Origin: Lachnospiraceae bacterium
Lineage (GTDB): Bacteria > Bacillota > Clostridia > Lachnospirales > Lachnospiraceae
Reading direction: 5' to 3'
Assembly (NCBI GenBank): GCA_017552715.1
Contig: JAFZOW010000129.1
Span: 14,954 to 78,953, forward strand
DNA length: 64,000 nt
Part shown: positions 18,740 through 59,132 of the stretch, one piece after another
Numbering within the stretch: the first letter of the stretch is position 1
How the letters are laid out: each line of letters starts with the position of its first letter
Notes under the pieces: generated by a model
Database searches by the model: none
Seen by the model: only the letters and a program-made list of their open reading frames with translations
Told to the model about the DNA's origin: nothing
Translations under genes and position numbers: made by a program

Positions 18740-21619
18740 TCAGATCTTTATGCTTATCTCACGGCTGATCTTTTTCTCCTGTTTCTTTCCGCGGCTCTGC
18801 ACCACGATGGTACGGTCGTGATAACGGAGCACAAAAAGTGCCGGGATACGCAGGCAAAGTGTGTCTGTTTCGCACTGTTCCAGCAGCTCCCTGGAGATAC
18901 GTACCAGGAATGCCTTTCCCTTTTCGGAACGTATGCTCAGGCGTCCCAGGCGCTTCTTCCTGCCGTCGGGGCAGACCGTATCCACCTCCGCCATGGCAAA
19001 AAGGTAGACCAGTCCGGCATAGGCACCGACGATGCCGCCCAGGCCTCCCACGGTCACCGCGCCCACCGTGGCAACCCTGCGGATGACCGGCATATTCCCG
19101 CTCTCCTCCCTGCTTTTTTTACCCCCTTCTCCGGGGCTTTCTTCCTTCACCGGAGCAGTCCCGCTTTCCTCCTGCGGGCCTTCGGCCACCGTGATGACCG
19201 GCTCCGCTTCTTCCGGCCCGCTCTCCTCATCCTCGTCTTCCTCGCTGTCGGGGATCACGGTCCTTTGCTGCGGCAGGAGCTCCTCATCCTCCTCTTCACG
19301 TTCGGTCCCGGCAGCAGCTGTGTTGCCTGTATTTCCCGCCCGCAGCGTTCCGGCACTTCCCGCAAGAGGCCTTTTTTCTCTTATGACGATCCCGTTACCG
19401 CTGACGCTGTTGTCACTGACAGTATTATCACTGACGGAATCATCGTTTTTTCCCTCCTCTTCGGGGGGCGTCGTTACCTTATCCCCGTCCTCATCATCGG
19501 CGCCGGGGGTCCTTCCCTGCTCTCCGGGTGCGGGATCGCCGCTCTCTCCATTACCGCCGTTTTCTTTTTTCTCCCGTTCCTTTCTTTTTCTCTCCCGTTC
19601 TTCCCTTTCCTTCTTTTCCTTTTCCTTACGTTCCTTTTCTTCCTGCTCCTGACGCTCTTTTTCTTCCTGTTCCTGACGTTCCTTCTCTTCCTGTTCTTTA
19701 CGTTCTTTCTCTTCCTGTTCTTTACGTTCTTTCTCTTCCTGCTCCTGACGTTCCTTCTCTTCCTGTTCTTTACGTTCTTTCTCTTCCTGTTCCTGTCGTT
19801 CTTTCTCTTCCTGTTCCCGGCGTTCCTTTTCTCTTCTTTCCTTCTCCTTATCCTCATCCTCACGGTTTTTCAGCTCATGGCTGCGAAGAGTGAGCATGGG
19901 CCGCTCCGTATCCCAGCGCCAGAGCCCCGTGGGCCTGCCGTATGCGTCAAACACGCATTCATCCTCCAGGTAATAGCCGTCAAATGCCGTATTTTTACCC
20001 AGTTCGGGAACGCTTACCGCGGGATAGCTCTCTCCGTAGACTACCGTAAGCTGCTCATCCGGGACACCGTCTCCGTCCCCGTCGGGTCCGTAATACACGG
20101 TATAGCTCCGGGCCGCCCATTTCGGCTCCAGTGTGTAATCCCCTTCCTCCAGGGAAGGCTTCCACTTTCCGGCAGGCTTTCCGTCCCTGTCATAGGCATC
20201 CACGCCGTCCACCTCATAGCCGTCAAATTCATAGCCCTTTCTGCCTTCAGGCTCTCCCGGCCGGATATCCGGGATCTCATCACCGTAACGCAGCTCCATC
20301 ACTTCGTCGGGCAGCCCGTCCCCGTCGGCATCCTCGCCGTAACGGATCTTCCAGATCTTGTCATGCCAGCGTCCGTCAAGCTCCACTTCACCCAGCTCGA
20401 AAAGCTCGGGCAGCTCTCCCCGGGGCTGTCCCTCACTGTCATAGATCAGGCGCTCCCCGTAAAAATAGCCGTCAAAGGCCTTTCCTTCCCGTTCCGCGGG
20501 CGGGCTGAGGGGCGGAAGCTCATCTCCGTATTCGATCTCGATCACGTTCCCGGCTCCGGCAGTGATACGGTATTTTCTGACAGACCATTTCTCCCGGAGT
20601 ATCAGGGTCTCCCCCTCCGGCAGCTCCGTCCATATCCCCACAGCCGCCGCATTCTCGTCATACAGCTTCTTATCTCCGATATAATAACCCTCAAAGAGGA
20701 AGCCCGGCCGCTCCCCGGGAACCGTCAGCCCCAGCGCCGGCGGTGCCTCGTTATAGACCAGCTCGCTCACCGAATCCGGGAGCCCGTCTCCGTCCCCGTC
20801 GCTGCCATAATAGAAGGAGAAACGCAGCGCTTCCCAGGAGGCCTGCAGATCCAGTACGGCCCGGCTCAGGGGCCTTGTCCCTTTTCCCACAGGCCGGCCC
20901 TCCTCATCATGGTACTGTTCTTCTCCCGCATAATACCCTTTGAACACGTAACCGCGTCTTTGGGGGACCTCCACCGCACTCAGGCTTTCACCCGCTTCCA
21001 GCTCCGAGCTCTTTAAAAGCGCTCCCTCGCTGTAATACCTTACGGTAGCAGGCAGGGACAGCTCGGTGTAGGAAAGGGATTCCTCCTTCCAGCTTTTCAG
21101 CTTTGAATCGTAGTAGCGGAGCGTAGCATGAAAGGTTCCTCTTTCCCGGACCGGAAGTACGCTCTTTCCATCGCTTTCATAGGCTCCCTCCGCGTCCCAG
21201 CTTATCTCGTACTCTGTGATCGCCTCCGACTTTGACGAGATCCCGGCGATCAGATCCACCTCTCTGCCGTAGAGTGCCCTTTCGATATAAAAACTTCCAA
21301 GATAATGCTCCGTACAGGTCAGCTGATCCACATAATCGCCGTCATGAACGGGTCCCACGGTTCCCAGTATACGTTTTCCGCAACGGTTGCAGACCCATAC
21401 ATCCGTACTGGGAGATGTAAAAGATCCTCCGCATTTTTTGTATACGGGAGAGTAACATCCCGTATACCGGTCTCCGTGGACATGATAAAGAGGGGCAGAT
21501 ACCGTGCCCAAAGTCTGCACCGGGTCATCTTCGGCCCTGGCGCACATGGGCGGGTGCATCCCGAAAAGGATGCTCATACAGATCAGACAACATAAGATTC
21601 TTTTTTTTACCATTCTCAC
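18740..21619 (-). CDS. large cell-surface protein: signal peptide, Cys-rich module, 5-6 Listeria-Bacteroides (InlB B-type) repeats with DGDGxPD motifs, E/K/R-rich helical stalk, acidic disordered region, TM anchor and short cytoplasmic tail
   Basis: 959 aa. The signal peptide is MRMVKKRILCCLICMSILFG.... There are recurrent G(Y/F)xFxGYY...YDxxGxP units, each following YGxDxDGDG(L/V)PD. The EEKER(Q/K)EQ unit occurs about 9 times. The TM segment is VATVGAVTVGGLGGIVGAYAGLVYLFA. GTG start with AGGAGG 8 nt upstream. Confidence 0.8.
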   Translation of the reverse strand: MRMVKKRILCCLICMSILFGMHPPMCARAEDDPVQTLGTVSAPLYHVHGDRYTGCYSPVYKKCGGSFTSPSTDVWVCNRCGKRILGTVGPVHDGDYVDQLTCTEHYLGSFYIERALYGREVDLIAGISSKSEAITEYEISWDAEGAYESDGKSVLPVRERGTFHATLRYYDSKLKSWKEESLSYTELSLPATVRYYSEGALLKSSELEAGESLSAVEVPQRRGYVFKGYYAGEEQYHDEEGRPVGKGTRPLSRAVLDLQASWEALRFSFYYGSDGDGDGLPDSVSELVYNEAPPALGLTVPGERPGFLFEGYYIGDKKLYDENAAAVGIWTELPEGETLILREKWSVRKYRITAGAGNVIEIEYGDELPPLSPPAEREGKAFDGYFYGERLIYDSEGQPRGELPELFELGEVELDGRWHDKIWKIRYGEDADGDGLPDEVMELRYGDEIPDIRPGEPEGRKGYEFDGYEVDGVDAYDRDGKPAGKWKPSLEEGDYTLEPKWAARSYTVYYGPDGDGDGVPDEQLTVVYGESYPAVSVPELGKNTAFDGYYLEDECVFDAYGRPTGLWRWDTERPMLTLRSHELKNREDEDKEKERREKERREQEEKERQEQEEKERKEQEEKERQEQEEKERKEQEEKERKEQEEKERQEQEEKERQEQEEKERKEKEKKEREERERKRKEREKKENGGNGESGDPAPGEQGRTPGADDEDGDKVTTPPEEEGKNDDSVSDNTVSDNSVSGNGIVIREKRPLAGSAGTLRAGNTGNTAAAGTEREEEDEELLPQQRTVIPDSEEDEDEESGPEEAEPVITVAEGPQEESGTAPVKEESPGEGGKKSREESGNMPVIRRVATVGAVTVGGLGGIVGAYAGLVYLFAMAEVDTVCPDGRKKRLGRLSIRSEKGKAFLVRISRELLEQCETDTLCLRIPALFVLRYHDRTIVVQSRGKKQEKKISREISIKI
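19625..19835. repeat. in-frame 24-bp tandem repeat (~9 units) encoding EEKER(Q/K)EQ inside the surface-protein gene
   Basis: On the + strand the units ttccttctcttcctgttctttacg / ttctttctcttcctgctcctgacg alternate, giving a 48-bp higher-order period. Confidence 0.85.
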
Positions 21620-31699: not shown

Positions 31700-31856
31700 A
31701 ATCACAGTGTTTTTGCAGATCCGGAAGAAGCTTTGTTACAGTCTTGATTCTGCTTTTTGACCTCTTCCTCACGACCTCTGCCGTGGCCGCAGCAGCATCC
31801 GCCGAGTCTTTCGATAACTGCTGTCCTCGTCAACCTATTACGGTCCTGGCGCTAAC
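31700..31856 (-). ncRNA. glmS ribozyme (GlcN6P-dependent self-cleaving cis-regulatory RNA)
   Basis: The minus strand reads UUA|GCGCCAGGACCGUAAUAGGUUGACGAGGACAGCAGUUAUCGAAAGACUCGGCGGAUGCUGCUGCGGCC.... It contains the conserved AGCGCC cleavage-site segment, a short P1, the GACGAGGA core, the GUUAUCGAA...CGGCGGAUGC core and a paired CAGCAG/CUGCUG P2. A P3/P4-like tail runs toward the nagB RBS. Confidence 0.85.
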
Positions 31857-31903
31857 AAGAACCTGATGTCCCTCCGAGCAGGTACTCGTTTTACTTATTT
31901 TTG

Positions 31904-55427: not shown

Positions 55428-56015
55428 TTATGCCGCCTTTTTAAAAGAGAACTCCATGATCGCCCTGGGCATGCGCTTTTCAAGGACCAGGGTGTAGAGC
55501 ATAAAGCCCAGGAAACCGGCCAGACAGCCCAGGAGGAGTCCGCAGATCACATCCGTGGGGTAATGCACGCATACATAAAGGCGGGACAGACCGATGAGTC
55601 CGGCCAGACAGATCGCCGGTATCCAGAAACGCTTCTTCACCTTCATCCAGGGCAGTACCGAAGTAGTGGCAAAAGAGGCGGAGGTGTGGCCCGAAGGGAA
55701 GGAATAGTCCCACTGGGGTTTAACCTTCAGCGCAGGCATCAGTGCCTCCACCAGGTCGTAAGGTCTGGGTCTTGCCACGATAGGCTTGATAACACCGTTA
55801 CAGAGTATAACATTGATGAGCAGGCCCAGGGTGCAGGCGATGCCGATGGGACGGGTCTTCTTAAAGAGCAACAGGAAAAAGATCATCACGATCCATACAC
55901 CGCCGCCCTTTCCCATATGCGTGATGACCGTCATGATGGGGGTGAGCCAGTCCTTCTGTATATGCTCAAAGATATATGTAAGGATGTTAACATCCCATTG
56001 CGTTATCGCATCCAT
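55428..56015 (-). CDS. PAP2-family phosphatase (undecaprenyl-diphosphate / lipid phosphatase type)
   Basis: Acid-phosphatase motifs KPIVARPRP, SFPSGHTS and SRLYVCVHYPTDV. 195 aa with several TM helices. Confidence 0.88.
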   Translation of the reverse strand: MDAITQWDVNILTYIFEHIQKDWLTPIMTVITHMGKGGGVWIVMIFFLLLFKKTRPIGIACTLGLLINVILCNGVIKPIVARPRPYDLVEALMPALKVKPQWDYSFPSGHTSASFATTSVLPWMKVKKRFWIPAICLAGLIGLSRLYVCVHYPTDVICGLLLGCLAGFLGFMLYTLVLEKRMPRAIMEFSFKKAA

Positions 56016-56056
56016 TTTTATCCCCTCTTTATCTGTTTGTATTTTCAGCCCGGCAG

Positions 56057-56390
56057 GGACTGCATGTGATCTGCATGCAGTTCATCATTCTGCCCCGTCC
56101 ACATGTGTTCGCACTCGGACTCAGCTCGCGCACGGATCTCGCCACAGGATCTTCCCGCTGCCTAAGCGGTCGCACATCTCCCCACATGCGTGGGGCCCCT
56201 CATGTGCTCCAGGTATCGGGCCCCTCCTTGTGGCCTGCTCGTAGCGGACGCTAAGCTCGCAAAGCGGGCTGCCGCCTGAAAAGAGGCGTCATCCCAGCTC
56301 GCTAAGCGCCGACGGCTCGATACGGTCCTCGTCGCGAAGCACATGCTGTCCGGGGCAGCCAGAATATCTCCCGCAGATCACATGCAGTCC
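56057..56390. repeat. 334-bp GC-rich element bounded by perfect 18-bp terminal inverted repeats (MITE-like, inverton-like or long structured element)
   Basis: GGACTGCATGTGATCTGC at 56057-56074 and its exact reverse complement at 56373-56390. The imperfect inverted-repeat similarity continues about 35 nt further inward (attctg..ccccg..catgtg..ttcgc). No credible ORF lies inside. Confidence 0.65.
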
Positions 56391-56421
56391 GCTGGTTTTT
56401 GTCCGTGATCAAAGTTGTTTC

Positions 56422-56549
56422 TCATTCGACAGAATTCTGCCGATATTTATCACTGGATGTATCCCGCGAGGCTGAGCTTGCGAATGCCGAGTTTAGCGGT
56501 GATCCCGCGTTCGAGCGCAAGCTCGAATCTGCATCGCGGGATCACGCCG
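56422..56549 (-). repeat. structured ~128-nt repeat element, copy B
   Basis: It shares the blocks tcattcgacagaattc and atcccgcgagg(c/g)tgagcttgcgaat(g/c)ccgagttt with copy C. It also has a two-tier hairpin, GTGATCCCGCG...TTCGAGC-gcaa-GCTCGAA...CGCGGGATCAC. It is flanked by 22-bp direct repeats. Confidence 0.65.
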
Positions 56550-56566
56550 CTGGTTTTTGTCCGTGA

Positions 56567-58159
56567 TCACTTCGAACTGTCTAATAAGTATGCCAGGACA
56601 AAAACCAGCGGCGAGTTCCAGTAGATGGTGATCTCGTTGGTGCTGTAGCTGCGCCAGTCATCCACGTAGCAGCACATAGCGCCACGGCCCGCCAGTGTTT
56701 CTTTATTGGCTGCCGTGTCGCCGGGACGATAGTTGGGCCCGCCGGATACATATCCGGGGATGGGCTCATCGATGCCGTCGGCCACGGTGGGACGGTTATG
56801 AGGATCGCGGAACGCTCTCTCCCCGTGCCCCGTTACATAACTCACATCCATTGCATTGCGCCCCAGCAGATAGTCCAGCTGGAAGCGGGCGGTATCGCGG
56901 TAGCTTTCCTTTCCGCTCAGTTCATACGCCACCAGCAGTTCCATGGCGTTACAGAGCACCTGCATATTGCTGCCCCAGCGGAAATCATAGGGATGGAAAG
57001 CCAGCTCATAAGGATTCCCCTCTGCCACGCTCCGCAGACGGTCCGCCTCCTCAAGCCAGGTACCCTTGAGCTTGTTTACCAGATCCTCCGGGAAGCTCTC
57101 CCGGGCACCGAATACGGCCAGGGAAGCCAGGCCACCCACATCCGCCCAGCCAAGGGCTGTCAGGCTGACCCTGAGCTCCAGGATGCGCCGCATCTCAAAG
57201 ATCCACTTCCGGTCTCCGCTCAGGATGAAAAGCTCTGCCGCAGCCCAGAGGCGTTCATCGGCATCAAACATATCCTCGTAAGTTCCGGTATGGACATCCT
57301 TCGGATTTTCAAACAGGAAGGCGGGATTGGCCTGCAGCCATTCTCCGGCCTTCAAAGCCGCCGCCTTGTAGCTTTCGGCAAGAGCGGCATCATACTTTTC
57401 AAAACAGCGCGATGCCAGAGACATGATCGCCGCAAAGTCAGCGGCAGCGAGGGACGAAACGGGAGTTACTACCACTTCCAGATCATCCTCCTCCGGCATG
57501 ATGAAATCCGCGAAATGCATGGAAGTGGCCTTGTGATGAACACTGCCGTCCTCTTCCTGCATCTTAAGCATCCAATCCAGTTCCCAGCGGCATTCGTTCA
57601 GGATATCGGGAATGCCGTTCCCGCTCTCGGGGATATCCAGGGACAGTTCAAAAGCCTCCGGCTTTCCAAGATACGCATAAAGAAGATGGGCTACGGCTAC
57701 CGCACCGGCAGTAACATAACGGCCGTAGTCTCCCGCATCATGCCAGCCGCCGCCAAGCTCGATGAAGCGCTCGGTACCAAGTATGCGCGCTTTCCCGCAA
57801 TGGCAGGCCGCATGGGCAAACTTCCCCGCATATTTTTCTTCCAGAGCCATGCCGCAGCGCTGGAAATACAGCATGCGGATGGCATCCCTGAACAGATTTT
57901 TGTATGGAGTTTCACTGATGGAAAAACGCGGGCTTTTGTCCCCGGAATCGTCCGTGAAGTAATATTCACCGGCTTCCGTTACGGAACTGAAATCAATGCA
58001 TGCAGCATCGATCCCGCTGTTTTCGTCAGATACGGGCTTTGCATCCCCTTCAAGCACAATGCTGTCCTTGGCATCATGCAGGATATAATGCGTAGCTCCG
58101 CGCAGAGTAGCATGTTTTACGGCACTGCTTTCATAAGCGACCTGATTAACTGAGATCAT
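56567..58159 (-). CDS. glycoside hydrolase family 9 with an N-terminal Ig-like (CelD_N) domain and no signal peptide
   Basis: GGWHDAGDYGRYV, DELDWML-type region (ECRWELDWMLKMQ), and C-terminal HNRP...GYVSGGPN. 530 aa. Confidence 0.88.
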   Translation of the reverse strand: MISVNQVAYESSAVKHATLRGATHYILHDAKDSIVLEGDAKPVSDENSGIDAACIDFSSVTEAGEYYFTDDSGDKSPRFSISETPYKNLFRDAIRMLYFQRCGMALEEKYAGKFAHAACHCGKARILGTERFIELGGGWHDAGDYGRYVTAGAVAVAHLLYAYLGKPEAFELSLDIPESGNGIPDILNECRWELDWMLKMQEEDGSVHHKATSMHFADFIMPEEDDLEVVVTPVSSLAAADFAAIMSLASRCFEKYDAALAESYKAAALKAGEWLQANPAFLFENPKDVHTGTYEDMFDADERLWAAAELFILSGDRKWIFEMRRILELRVSLTALGWADVGGLASLAVFGARESFPEDLVNKLKGTWLEEADRLRSVAEGNPYELAFHPYDFRWGSNMQVLCNAMELLVAYELSGKESYRDTARFQLDYLLGRNAMDVSYVTGHGERAFRDPHNRPTVADGIDEPIPGYVSGGPNYRPGDTAANKETLAGRGAMCCYVDDWRSYSTNEITIYWNSPLVFVLAYLLDSSK

Positions 58160-58185
58160 ATAACCCCCTTATTATCTGCTGTTCC

Positions 58186-58737
58186 TTACTCCAGCGATTC
58201 ATCATATACGGCACGGGCGCCGCCCACAAAGCGGGGACGGTAACGCGCCGCGATCACTCTTGCTTCCCCCAATGTATCTGCATTAAGCTTCAGCGGTACT
58301 ACCACGGGCTTTACATGCATGCCGATGAGTACGCCGCCGATGTCGATCCCTGCCAGAGCCTGTGCGTGAATATCCGCCACAAGCACCGCATCCTTCAGTT
58401 CCCTGTAAGCCATGGTCGCAAGGGAACCGCCCGCCTTGGGCTGCGGTACGGCATTCACCTGTTCCAGGCCGTAGCGTTCCATGGTCTCGCGCTCCACAAC
58501 CAGGGCACGGTTCAGATGCTCGCAGCACTGCACCGCGATATGGAGATCCAGCTCCTTAACAGCTGCGTAGATCCCCTTCCACAGCTCTTCCGCCAGTTCC
58601 GGACTGGAATGGGTTCCGATCCGCTCCCCCAGCACCGCGCTGGTGGAACAACCCACTACCAGCAGCTCCCCCGCCTTCAGCTTTGCCAGGGAGGAAACCT
58701 CCTTCACTAATGCAGTTGCCTGTTCTTCTATGGTCAT
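58186..58737 (-). CDS. TIGR01440/DUF436 family protein (YwlG-like)
   Basis: 183 aa from MTIEEQATALVKEV...ELLVVGCSTSAV...CCEHLNRALVVER. RBS is AAGGAA 7 nt upstream. The ORF track N-terminal extension to 58863 runs through repeat element C and is rejected. Confidence 0.8.
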   Translation of the reverse strand: MTIEEQATALVKEVSSLAKLKAGELLVVGCSTSAVLGERIGTHSSPELAEELWKGIYAAVKELDLHIAVQCCEHLNRALVVERETMERYGLEQVNAVPQPKAGGSLATMAYRELKDAVLVADIHAQALAGIDIGGVLIGMHVKPVVVPLKLNADTLGEARVIAARYRPRFVGGARAVYDESLE

Positions 58738-58752
58738 TACTGATTCCTTTAT

Positions 58753-58879
58753 CATTCGACAGAATTCCGGAGCTGTCTTGCGGAGGAAACATCCCGCGAG
58801 GGTGAGCTTGCGAATCCCGAGTTTTACGGCGATCCGGCCATTGCCCGCAGGGCAATTCTGCATGGACGGATCGCGTGCT
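58753..58879 (-). repeat. structured ~127-nt repeat element, copy C, occupying the 5' leader position of the DUF436 gene
   Basis: It has the same conserved blocks as copy B. Its hairpin is GCGATCCG...ATTGCCC-gcag-GGGCAAT...CGGATCGC, with compensatory changes relative to B. It ends 16 nt before the DUF436 start codon. Confidence 0.65.
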
Positions 58880-58921
58880 TAATTTATATAAAAAACTTGT
58901 TTTTTATATAAATTAAGCACC
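58876..58921. terminator. perfect 21-bp AT-rich palindrome (bidirectional hairpin) between tRNA-Lys and repeat element C
   Basis: GTGCTTAATTTATATAAAAAA-cttg-TTTTTTATATAAATTAAGCAC. Confidence 0.55.
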
Positions 58922-58967
58922 TGCCCCAACAGTTTGTTTCCTCCCCCGTCAAAACAAGTGCTTTTCC

Positions 58968-59040
58968 TGCACCGCCAGGGGCTCGAACCCTGGACACCCT
59001 GATTAAGAGTCAGGTGCTCTACCAACTGAGCTAGCGGTGC
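58968..59040 (-). tRNA. tRNA-Lys (anticodon CUU)
   Basis: The reverse complement reads GCACCGCTAGCTCAGTTGGTAGAGCACCTGACTCTTAATCAGGGTGTCCAGGGTTCGAGCCCCTGGCGGTGCA. It forms a cloverleaf with anticodon loop CTCTTAA. CCA is not encoded. Confidence 0.92.
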
Positions 59041-59132
59041 ATACCGCTGTTTAGTTTTCCGCGTCTTTCAACGCACAGATGATATATTACTCCAAACAGC
59101 AGTCTTTGTCAAGTATCATTTCAAAATCGGGG

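Follow-up and report, generated by a model that had tools for sequence, protein, structure and literature searches.

A structured repeat family in rumen Lachnospiraceae: probable small insertion elements with host-derived palindromes at their junctions

Two short sequences in a 64,000-nt stretch of DNA from a Lachnospiraceae bacterium (hereafter the window) raise the question of what a structure conserved by covariation is doing beside the genes where it stands. The original prediction, made from the sequence alone, described the two as copies of one structured repeat and read that repeat as a functional RNA or a protein-recognised DNA structure. Both elements, B and C, were found at the coordinates claimed for them (Table 1). 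Having compared them with copies elsewhere and with sites that lack them, we conclude that B and C are probably copies of a small non-coding, non-autonomous insertion element, about 115-160 nt in size, that is dispersed in rumen Lachnospiraceae.

Position and structure of the two window copies

Because all genes in this part of the window lie on the minus strand, we read the elements on that strand. The order is then TelA, a tRNA, element C, DUF436, a GH9 glycoside hydrolase, element B, about 330 nt of GC-rich DNA and a PAP2 phosphatase, with C in the leader of the tRNA-to-DUF436 transcript and B between GH9 and PAP2. The tail of C ends 5 nt upstream of the DUF436 ribosome-binding site. Gene calling reaches into the element here: in L029, a contig identical to the window across this region, DUF436 is called from the ATG of the P2 bulge ATGCAGA, and in L036 the open reading frame called as RsmG runs into a shortened element. 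The true starts of DUF436 and RsmG are downstream of the called ones.

B and C had been said to align over their whole length; we found a gap-free alignment over 102 nt, at 75% identity. The conserved block described between them is present in both, at 34 nt rather than ~40 nt, and this block, ATCCCGCGAGGSTGAGCTTGCGAATSCCGAGTTT, occurs exactly twice in the 64-kb window against 0 expected from 100 shuffles. A 5' block, tcattcgacagaattc, and a 22-nt spacer are common to B and C as described, but are missing from the family core elsewhere. The outer stems, the inner stems and the one-sided 7-nt loop (tctgcat on the plus strand, ATGCAGA on the minus strand) match the earlier description; the apical loop of C, given there as 4 nt, is 3 nt long (GCA), between ATTGCCC and GGGCAAT.

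In minus-strand reading, the core common to the family consists of a two-tier hairpin (P2), then a 7-nt linker, then a 28-nt block, CTCGGGATTCGCAAGCTCACCCTCGCGG. P2 has an 11-bp outer stem, a one-sided A-rich bulge of 6-8 nt, an inner stem of 6-7 bp and a loop of 3-4 nt. Within the block, GGG (block positions 4-6) pairs with CCC (positions 20-22) in a 3-bp G-C helix, P3, which closes an invariant 13-nt loop, AUUCGCAAGCUCA, and is followed by UCGCG. Only five substitutions occur in the block across copies, all of them within P3 and all with the pairing kept: B has G6->C together with C20->G, and L033 has G5->A with C21->U, plus C20->U. The original prediction had marked two block positions as variable, (c/g) and (g/c); variable they are, but it missed that both pair in this third helix. 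Since all block substitutions sit on P3 and stay paired, these two positions are a compensatory P3 pair.

Pair counts on 15 full copies supported all three helices and, with them, the claim that the structure is conserved through covariation and accompanied by conserved unpaired parts. Standard pairs filled 92.7% of pair cells, both-sided changes were seen in 19 of the 21 pairs, and none of 500 shuffles reached the observed pairing; in a control with partners slid by 1-3 columns, pairing was only 35-45%. P3 was 100% paired, with two thirds of its pairs compensated. Compensatory changes thus went beyond the controls, as expected of a structured RNA or single-stranded DNA. Perfect DNA palindromes can stay symmetric through templated mutation, but this is insufficient here because the one-sided bulge of P2 is conserved and P3 has a large fixed loop. 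In the window minus-strand reading, G.U pairs outnumber A.C pairs by 8 to 2, and L033 adds a G.U in P3; this excess indicates that the structured strand, whether RNA or single-stranded DNA, is the window minus strand. A kissing interaction between the P2 bulge and the P3 loop was considered and dropped, as its pairing is not conserved across subfamilies. A peptide-coding reading also failed: the block does have open frames, but the hairpin differs in length and sequence from copy to copy and there is no conserved ORF.

Table 1. Positions of features in and around the two copies (window coordinates unless a locus is named; motifs are given in minus-strand reading).
Feature	Position	Strand	Description
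Element B, as first delimited	56422-56549		Contains the covariance model match (88 bits)
B, T1	56546..56612	-	17-nt arms, 33-nt loop containing the GH9 stop codon
B, T1 host arm	56596-56612		GCCGCTGGTTTTTGTCC, within GH9 coding sequence (codons for PLVFV)
B, T1 inverted arm	56546-56562		GGACAAAAACCAGCGGC
B, P2	56499..56545	-	Two-tier hairpin; outer stem GTGATCCCGCG/CGCGGGATCAC, bulge ATGCAGA; inner stem TTCGAGC/GCTCGAA, loop TTGC
B, linker	56492-56498	-	CGCTAAA
B, 28-nt block with P3	56464..56491	-	G6->C and C20->G; C 56486 pairs with G 56472
B, tail	56422..56463	-	22-nt stretch unlike C, then GAATTCTGTCGAATGA
Direct repeat around B	56547-56569 and 56389..56411	-	23 nt, TGATCACGGACAAAAACCAGCGG
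Foldback adjoining B	56057-56390		334 nt, GC-rich
Element C, as first delimited	58753-58879
C, covariance model match	58790-58874		96.8 bits
C, T1	58875..58920	-	Perfect 22-bp palindrome, directly adjoining P2
C, P2	58829..58874	-	Two-tier hairpin (from sequence and pair counts); outer stem GCGATCCGTCC/GGCCGGATCGC, 5' bulge ATGCAGA; inner stem ATTGCCC/GGGCAAT, loop TGC
C, linker	58822-58828	-	CGTAAAA
C, 28-nt block	58794..58821	-	CTCGGGATTCGCAAGCTCACCCTCGCGG
C, P3	58816-58818 with 58800-58802	-	GGG pairs with CCC, closing the 13-nt loop AUUCGCAAGCUCA
C, tail	58752..58793	-	22-nt stretch unlike B, then GAATTCTGTCGAATGA, common to B
DUF436 start codon	58737	-
DUF436-GH9-PAP2 cluster	58737-55428	-	Order conserved in L022-L028
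DUF436 call reaching into C	58186-58863		225 aa in L029
glmS ribozyme/riboswitch	31713-31864	-	70.7 bits against a gathering score of 37
24-nt-period tandem array	19561-19836		~11 copies
RsmG call, L036	1196-1966		256 aa
Degenerate P2 hairpin, L016	490-577		Without block
52-nt insert in second tandem copy, L013	6437-6488 (approx.)		GC-rich; the copy itself is decayed

Copies elsewhere and empty sites

A scan of species-representative genomes with 20 specified block bases returned 13 loci, 12 of them true, in rumen Lachnospiraceae and Butyrivibrio MAGs; a metagenome scan added a few more, and the family is present in at least 12 independent loci. Two genomes held three matches each, the maximum per genome for exact-block matches in these incomplete MAGs. 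The large collections were scanned for exact 20-21-nt block matches, and divergent relatives and an autonomous partner may have escaped such a scan. A covariance model of P2, linker and block, built on 12 copies, gave 16 full-length matches in other contigs besides the two in the window, several of them at the same or orthologous loci, which disposes of the original concern that only two copies might exist. With filters off, the model found B and C alone in the window. L002, L014, L019 and L021, which are without the hairpin and lie in unrelated high-GC sequence, were dropped as chance matches. The viral contig scan yielded one chance match, in a GC-rich coding region, and blastn against plasmid and phage records yielded only an AT-rich chance match of the C palindrome to Staphylococcus phages. 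Elsewhere in the window, the 24-nt tandem array (82-88% matches, a higher-order 72-nt unit) is rich in pyrimidines on the plus strand; its minus strand probably codes for a repetitive stretch of protein.

The original prediction recognised no named riboswitch, T-box, REP or CRISPR-related motif, and no Rfam family matched the repeat. At gathering threshold, Rfam 15 returned only glmS and two tRNAs for the whole window; at E<=10, the region 55900-59100 gave only the tRNA and chance hairpin matches on the T1 palindromes described below. A possible likeness of the plus-strand block to helix 41 of 16S rRNA was rejected, the Rfam SSU models giving no match at E<=10. Literature searches for the sequence and for similar Lachnospiraceae elements found no description. 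Judged by Rfam, plasmid and phage records and full-text sequence search, and to the extent that these tools can tell, the structured repeat family is previously undescribed.

The neighbours of the copies are housekeeping genes without relation to one another: flagellin, aminotransferase, TrpA, DegV, a XerD-like recombinase, Rho, Hsp70, Yip1, trigger factor, RsmG and DeoC. At six sites (B, C, L003, L010, L013/L033 and the L016 group), a gene running in the same direction as the element ends on its P2 side. L007 and L009 are antisense to both neighbours, L001 is antisense to the adjacent tig gene, and L005 lies between two divergently transcribed genes, co-directional with Hsp70. Among the neighbours of the scanned copies, and at the DUF436 genes of relatives, we found no consistent position or orientation upstream of related genes. 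Neither window copy has a sigma-70-like promoter site, and a sigma-54 promoter at the copies was ruled out by spacing. The idea of a TnpB/IscB guide RNA was discarded as well, the ~380-aa upstream ORFs being flagellin and aminotransferase.

The same sites can be followed with and without the element. The order TelA-tRNA-DUF436-GH9-PAP2 is kept in L022-L028, and the covariance model finds no copy there; the gap between GH9 and PAP2 is 551 nt in the window versus 33, 83 and 0 nt in relatives. For B and C, the relatives that supply these empty sites are distant (DUF436 70-78% identical), and the close-relative evidence for presence and absence belongs to the flagellin-fliS locus, not to the B or C site. 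The flagellin-fliS site is empty in L030 and L031 (flagellin 99% identical in both), L032 (93%) and L034 (79%), and filled in L033 (flagellin 95%), with one copy, and in L013, with two tandem copies, the second decayed. Between L032 and L033, the difference is a clean insertion of ~121 nt exactly at the stop codon, in otherwise near-identical sequence. The family thus combines presence and absence at the same site with several dispersed copies, as a non-autonomous mobile element would. The cluster of DUF436 (TIGR01440), a GH9 cellulase-like gene and PAP2 is itself conserved in order across L022-L028, which represent several Lachnospiraceae, and the same tRNA with a TTGACA-17-TAATAT promoter lies upstream of it in L022 and in the window.

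Some orthologous loci have also kept their copies from one species to another (L006/L016/L018 and L008/L009/L020), and L016 and L018 differ by compensatory changes. Deletion derivatives were found in L008 (versus L009) and L036 (versus L007), and L015 is a remnant without the 5' part. L036, the only close relative of L007 at that site, had been considered as its empty site and turned out to be a deletion derivative instead. Tandem copies occur in L013 and L016. The degenerate P2 hairpin of L016 follows a second terminator-like palindrome at the XerD-like locus, with a tandem period of ~160 nt. In the decayed second copy of L013, a GC-rich insert of 52 nt, GTCTCCGCTCCGCTCCGGTCGTTGCCGGACCGGCGCCACCGGCGCCTGGCAA, interrupts the block and separates AAGCT from CCCTCGCGG.

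Junctions, a possible route of insertion and rival readings

A further hairpin, T1, stood on the P2 side of all 14 full copies whose upstream sequence was long enough, with arms of 12-25 bp and the near arm 0-2 nt from P2; of 2000 random window positions, one had such a hairpin. From one subfamily to another, T1 shows no relation in sequence. At the three sites open to a check (B, C and the flagellin site), host sequence makes up the distal arm, of which the proximal arm is an inverted copy; the proximal arm is missing from all empty sites compared for these three. At the B site, relatives have CCGCTGGTCTTTGT in GH9 without the downstream complement. At C, the tRNA-proximal arm starts with GTGCTT, the 3' arm of the tRNA terminator, which is also in relatives, and the P2-proximal arm has no counterpart in the empty sites of L022 and L023. 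In L013 and L033, the distal arm is formed by the last flagellin codons. The L033 palindrome is centred on a natural 12-nt palindrome in those codons, TTACTGCAGTAA, which L032 carries as well; the centre in L013 is GCAGCTGC, and the GH9 stop of the window has a short palindrome, GTGATCAC. The tail of C includes TGTTTCCTCC, the inverse of host GGAGGAAACA upstream of T1. In the Butyrivibrio genome that holds L001, L007 and L010, the three copies have the T1 core in common and differ by locus in the outer pairs alone, so that a portion of T1 can move along with the element.

Of the 14 loci tested, 7 are flanked by significant direct repeats of host sequence (14, 16, 19, 23, 26, 43 and 50 nt long), and the remaining loci have none. 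The 23-nt repeat at B is 100% identical and was matched in none of 200 shuffles. In L007, a 43-nt duplication leaves the DeoC 3' end and the RsmG start both intact, and the two probably overlapped before the insertion. At the L013 junction, the expected continuation TGCAAC meets the element start TGCGAC. On the other side of the element, away from T1, the tail is of variable length.

Adjoining copy B, the window also contains a 334-nt foldback with perfect 18-nt terminal inverted repeats, GGACTGCATGTGATCTGC, an MFE of -178 kcal/mol and z = -6, which is missing from the short GH9-PAP2 gaps of relatives. It had no Rfam, plasmid or covariance-model match and no other copy in the window or among the loci searched for it. 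It has the appearance of another insertion, one unrelated to B, or of a palindrome that expanded in this place.

What might move such an element? Most likely its mover, whatever it is, recognises the P2 and P3 hairpins, either as RNA or as single-stranded DNA: stems that are free to change if they stay paired, together with a fixed loop and flank, are what would be expected if the core were recognised by a trans-acting enzyme. We propose that the core would serve as a handle for such an enzyme, which would copy or move the element, and that joining would take place at a nick or break, a DNA end near the end of a gene. The free host 3' end could fold back at a short palindrome or microhomology, and synthesis from it would copy ~12-25 nt of its own upstream sequence, giving T1, before switching onto the element at a short homology such as TGCAAC/TGCGAC in L013; staggered breaks would produce long and variable target duplications. 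In vitro, bacterial group II intron RT and its relative G2L4 RT carry out both snap-back synthesis and microhomology end joining (bioRxiv 10.1101/2022.03.14.484287), which makes an RT-driven route plausible; a DNA-only template switch in replication or repair would leave the same scars.

Several observations count against an insertion element. No transposase, reverse transcriptase or other mobilising gene lies beside any copy among the neighbours scanned, and the genome, metagenome, viral and plasmid/phage scans gave no full-length autonomous relative with the same block. Copy number is low (at most three exact-block matches per genome in incomplete MAGs), and the empty sites for B and C are those of distant relatives. 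T1 is not purely templated by the local host in the genome with L001, L007 and L010, and the repeat flanking B holds the inverted arm, not the host arm, which needs an earlier event at the same site. Persistence at orthologous loci, with a near-invariant block, could also mean selection on each copy as a functional RNA.

This last point leads to a reading that we consider unlikely, in which the copies are a multi-copy small RNA or 3'-UTR RNA family kept by selection, with the P3 loop as a seed or protein-binding site, spread by ordinary duplication and mobile only incidentally. Across genera the 28-nt block hardly changes while the stems covary, orthologous loci of different species keep their copies with the L016/L018 compensatory changes, and the preponderance of G.U over A.C pairs, with the G.U in P3 of L033, favours one structured strand. 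Against this, no promoter-like site precedes either window copy, and T1, directly adjoining P2, leaves no space for one on that side. Copies are oriented both ways relative to their neighbours, strains with 93-99% identical flagellins differ in presence, and decayed and truncated copies exist. Ordinary duplication, moreover, leaves the host-templated palindromes and the target duplications unexplained.

Unlikely also, and if anything a little more so, is that the copies arose by retro-copying, as SINEs or processed pseudogenes do, from a small structured RNA comprising P2 and the P3 loop, and were made by a trans-acting RT and joined at nicks or breaks. The candidate enzyme would be a group II intron RT or one of the G2L type, with snap-back building T1 and staggered breaks the 14-50-nt duplications. 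The length and variability of those duplications fit such an origin, as do the irregular T1 junction, always on the P2 or 5' side with a tail of variable length on the other, the L015 copy without its 5' part, tandem re-insertion at one site and a structured strand that is the same across copies; group II-type RTs do perform snap-back and MMEJ in vitro (bioRxiv 10.1101/2022.03.14.484287). In the neighbourhoods scanned, however, no RT gene lies near any copy, the copies have neither a poly(A) nor another defined 3' end, no master gene came to light, and DNA-only template switching can give every junction feature. More cautiously, the preferred insertion element may represent a new insertion class with a target-templated junction, unlike described bacterial transposition pathways.

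Far less probable is an IS200/IS605 miniature, PATE- or REPIN-like, whose hairpins would be recognised by a Y1 HUH transposase or a RAYT that moves it in the form of single-stranded DNA. Strand-specific hairpins with covarying stems and a conserved single-stranded flank would suit it, as would small, intergenic, multi-copy units. The presence of 14-50-nt duplications and host-templated palindromes speaks against it; there is no conserved target tetranucleotide, no second similar end hairpin, no tnpA/tnpB or other Y1 transposase gene nearby, and no match to the IS605-related RNA families of Rfam. Host sequence at the junction differs from locus to locus, and only one hairpin pair is conserved.

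Least credible of all is a cis-regulatory leader, riboswitch or attenuator, controlling DUF436-GH9-PAP2 expression: C does lie directly upstream of DUF436, on the coding strand and just before the ribosome-binding site, and alternative pairings are conceivable, but the distribution of copies already contradicts this reading, with relatives that have the same operon without the element, other copies that flank unrelated genes, mostly at 3' ends or antisense, no Rfam match and an MFE z-score for C alone of only -0.97. Because relatives keep the gene order without the element and the flagellin-fliS series varies, the element is not a gene-specific leader. The functional RNA of the original prediction, taken as a riboswitch or leader, was not borne out, given unrelated neighbours, mixed orientation and absence at syntenic and near-identical-strain sites. 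Any effect of B or C on neighbouring genes would be a side effect and not the reason the sequence exists.

Significance and comparison with known systems

The repeat family belongs to a host group of important gut and rumen bacteria, in which it could aid strain typing and the correction of annotations such as the DUF436 and RsmG calls that extend into the element. To our knowledge, standard cut-and-paste or copy-paste transposases leave no such signature of a host-templated palindrome with long, variable duplications. Fold-back priming and microhomology joining would be expected to produce such a junction. If an RT or repair polymerase were responsible, the elements would preserve a natural record of its activity in bacterial genomes and be a tractable way into the origin of new hairpins, including terminator-like ones, beside genes.

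The Correia elements of Neisseria, the pneumococcal BOX and RUP elements and the enterobacterial ERIC sequences are MITE-like, non-autonomous intergenic repeats. Like them, the element is non-coding, strongly folded and ~100-160 nt long, stands at gene ends and inside transcripts in several copies per genome, varies in presence among strains and is presumably moved in trans. Unlike them, it has no fixed terminal inverted repeats and no short fixed duplication; instead it has a host-built palindrome at one junction, duplications of 14-50 nt and a low known copy number, and its conserved part is an internal hairpin loop rather than the termini. The terminal inverted repeats of a classical MITE are lacking, in that copies from one genome have sequence in common over the span from T1 through the block and nowhere else, T1 arms are wholly different between subfamilies and the other end has no inverted 28-nt block. 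Nor did we find the short duplication of constant length that marks classical MITEs, as significant duplications are 14-50 nt long and other loci have none.

IS200/IS605 elements are not known to duplicate their target, and they insert beside a fixed target of 4-5 nt. Like PATEs and REP/REPIN sequences, our element is non-coding and intergenic, with one-strand hairpins, covarying stems and a conserved flank; unlike them, it has target duplications and host-templated palindromes.

Class C group II introns, which depend on RT, are located directly downstream of hairpins at gene 3' ends. The element is like them in its position directly after a hairpin at a gene 3' end. It differs in being only about 85-130 nt long and without intron domains, with no intron-related Rfam match at E<=10, and its hairpin, unlike theirs, does not pre-exist in the empty sites compared.

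Integron attC sites carry R''/R' core sites, RYYYAAC ... GTTRRRY, at the foot of the hairpin. Like attC sites, the copies are imperfect hairpins that vary in sequence but keep their shape, with unpaired bases on one side, and they stand right after stop codons, sometimes overlapping the gene end. Unlike attC sites, they lack the R''/R' core: the outer stem starts GCGAATC/GCAATTT and ends GATTCGC/AAATTGC, and in 15 of 15 copies it starts GC(G/A)A(A/T)(T/C) and ends (G/A)(A/T)T(C/T)GC, with no GTTRRRY. The copies are also scattered rather than arranged in cassette arrays, and there is no intI in the neighbourhoods checked.

Finally, the element differs from eukaryotic SINEs in being bacterial and in having neither an A-tail nor an internal promoter, with no partner RT identified. 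It resembles them, and the products of target-primed reverse transcription, in being a structured non-coding unit with variable-length duplications, truncated copies, re-insertion at the same site and irregular 5' junctions with microhomology or inversions. This likeness to SINEs would be one of mechanism only.
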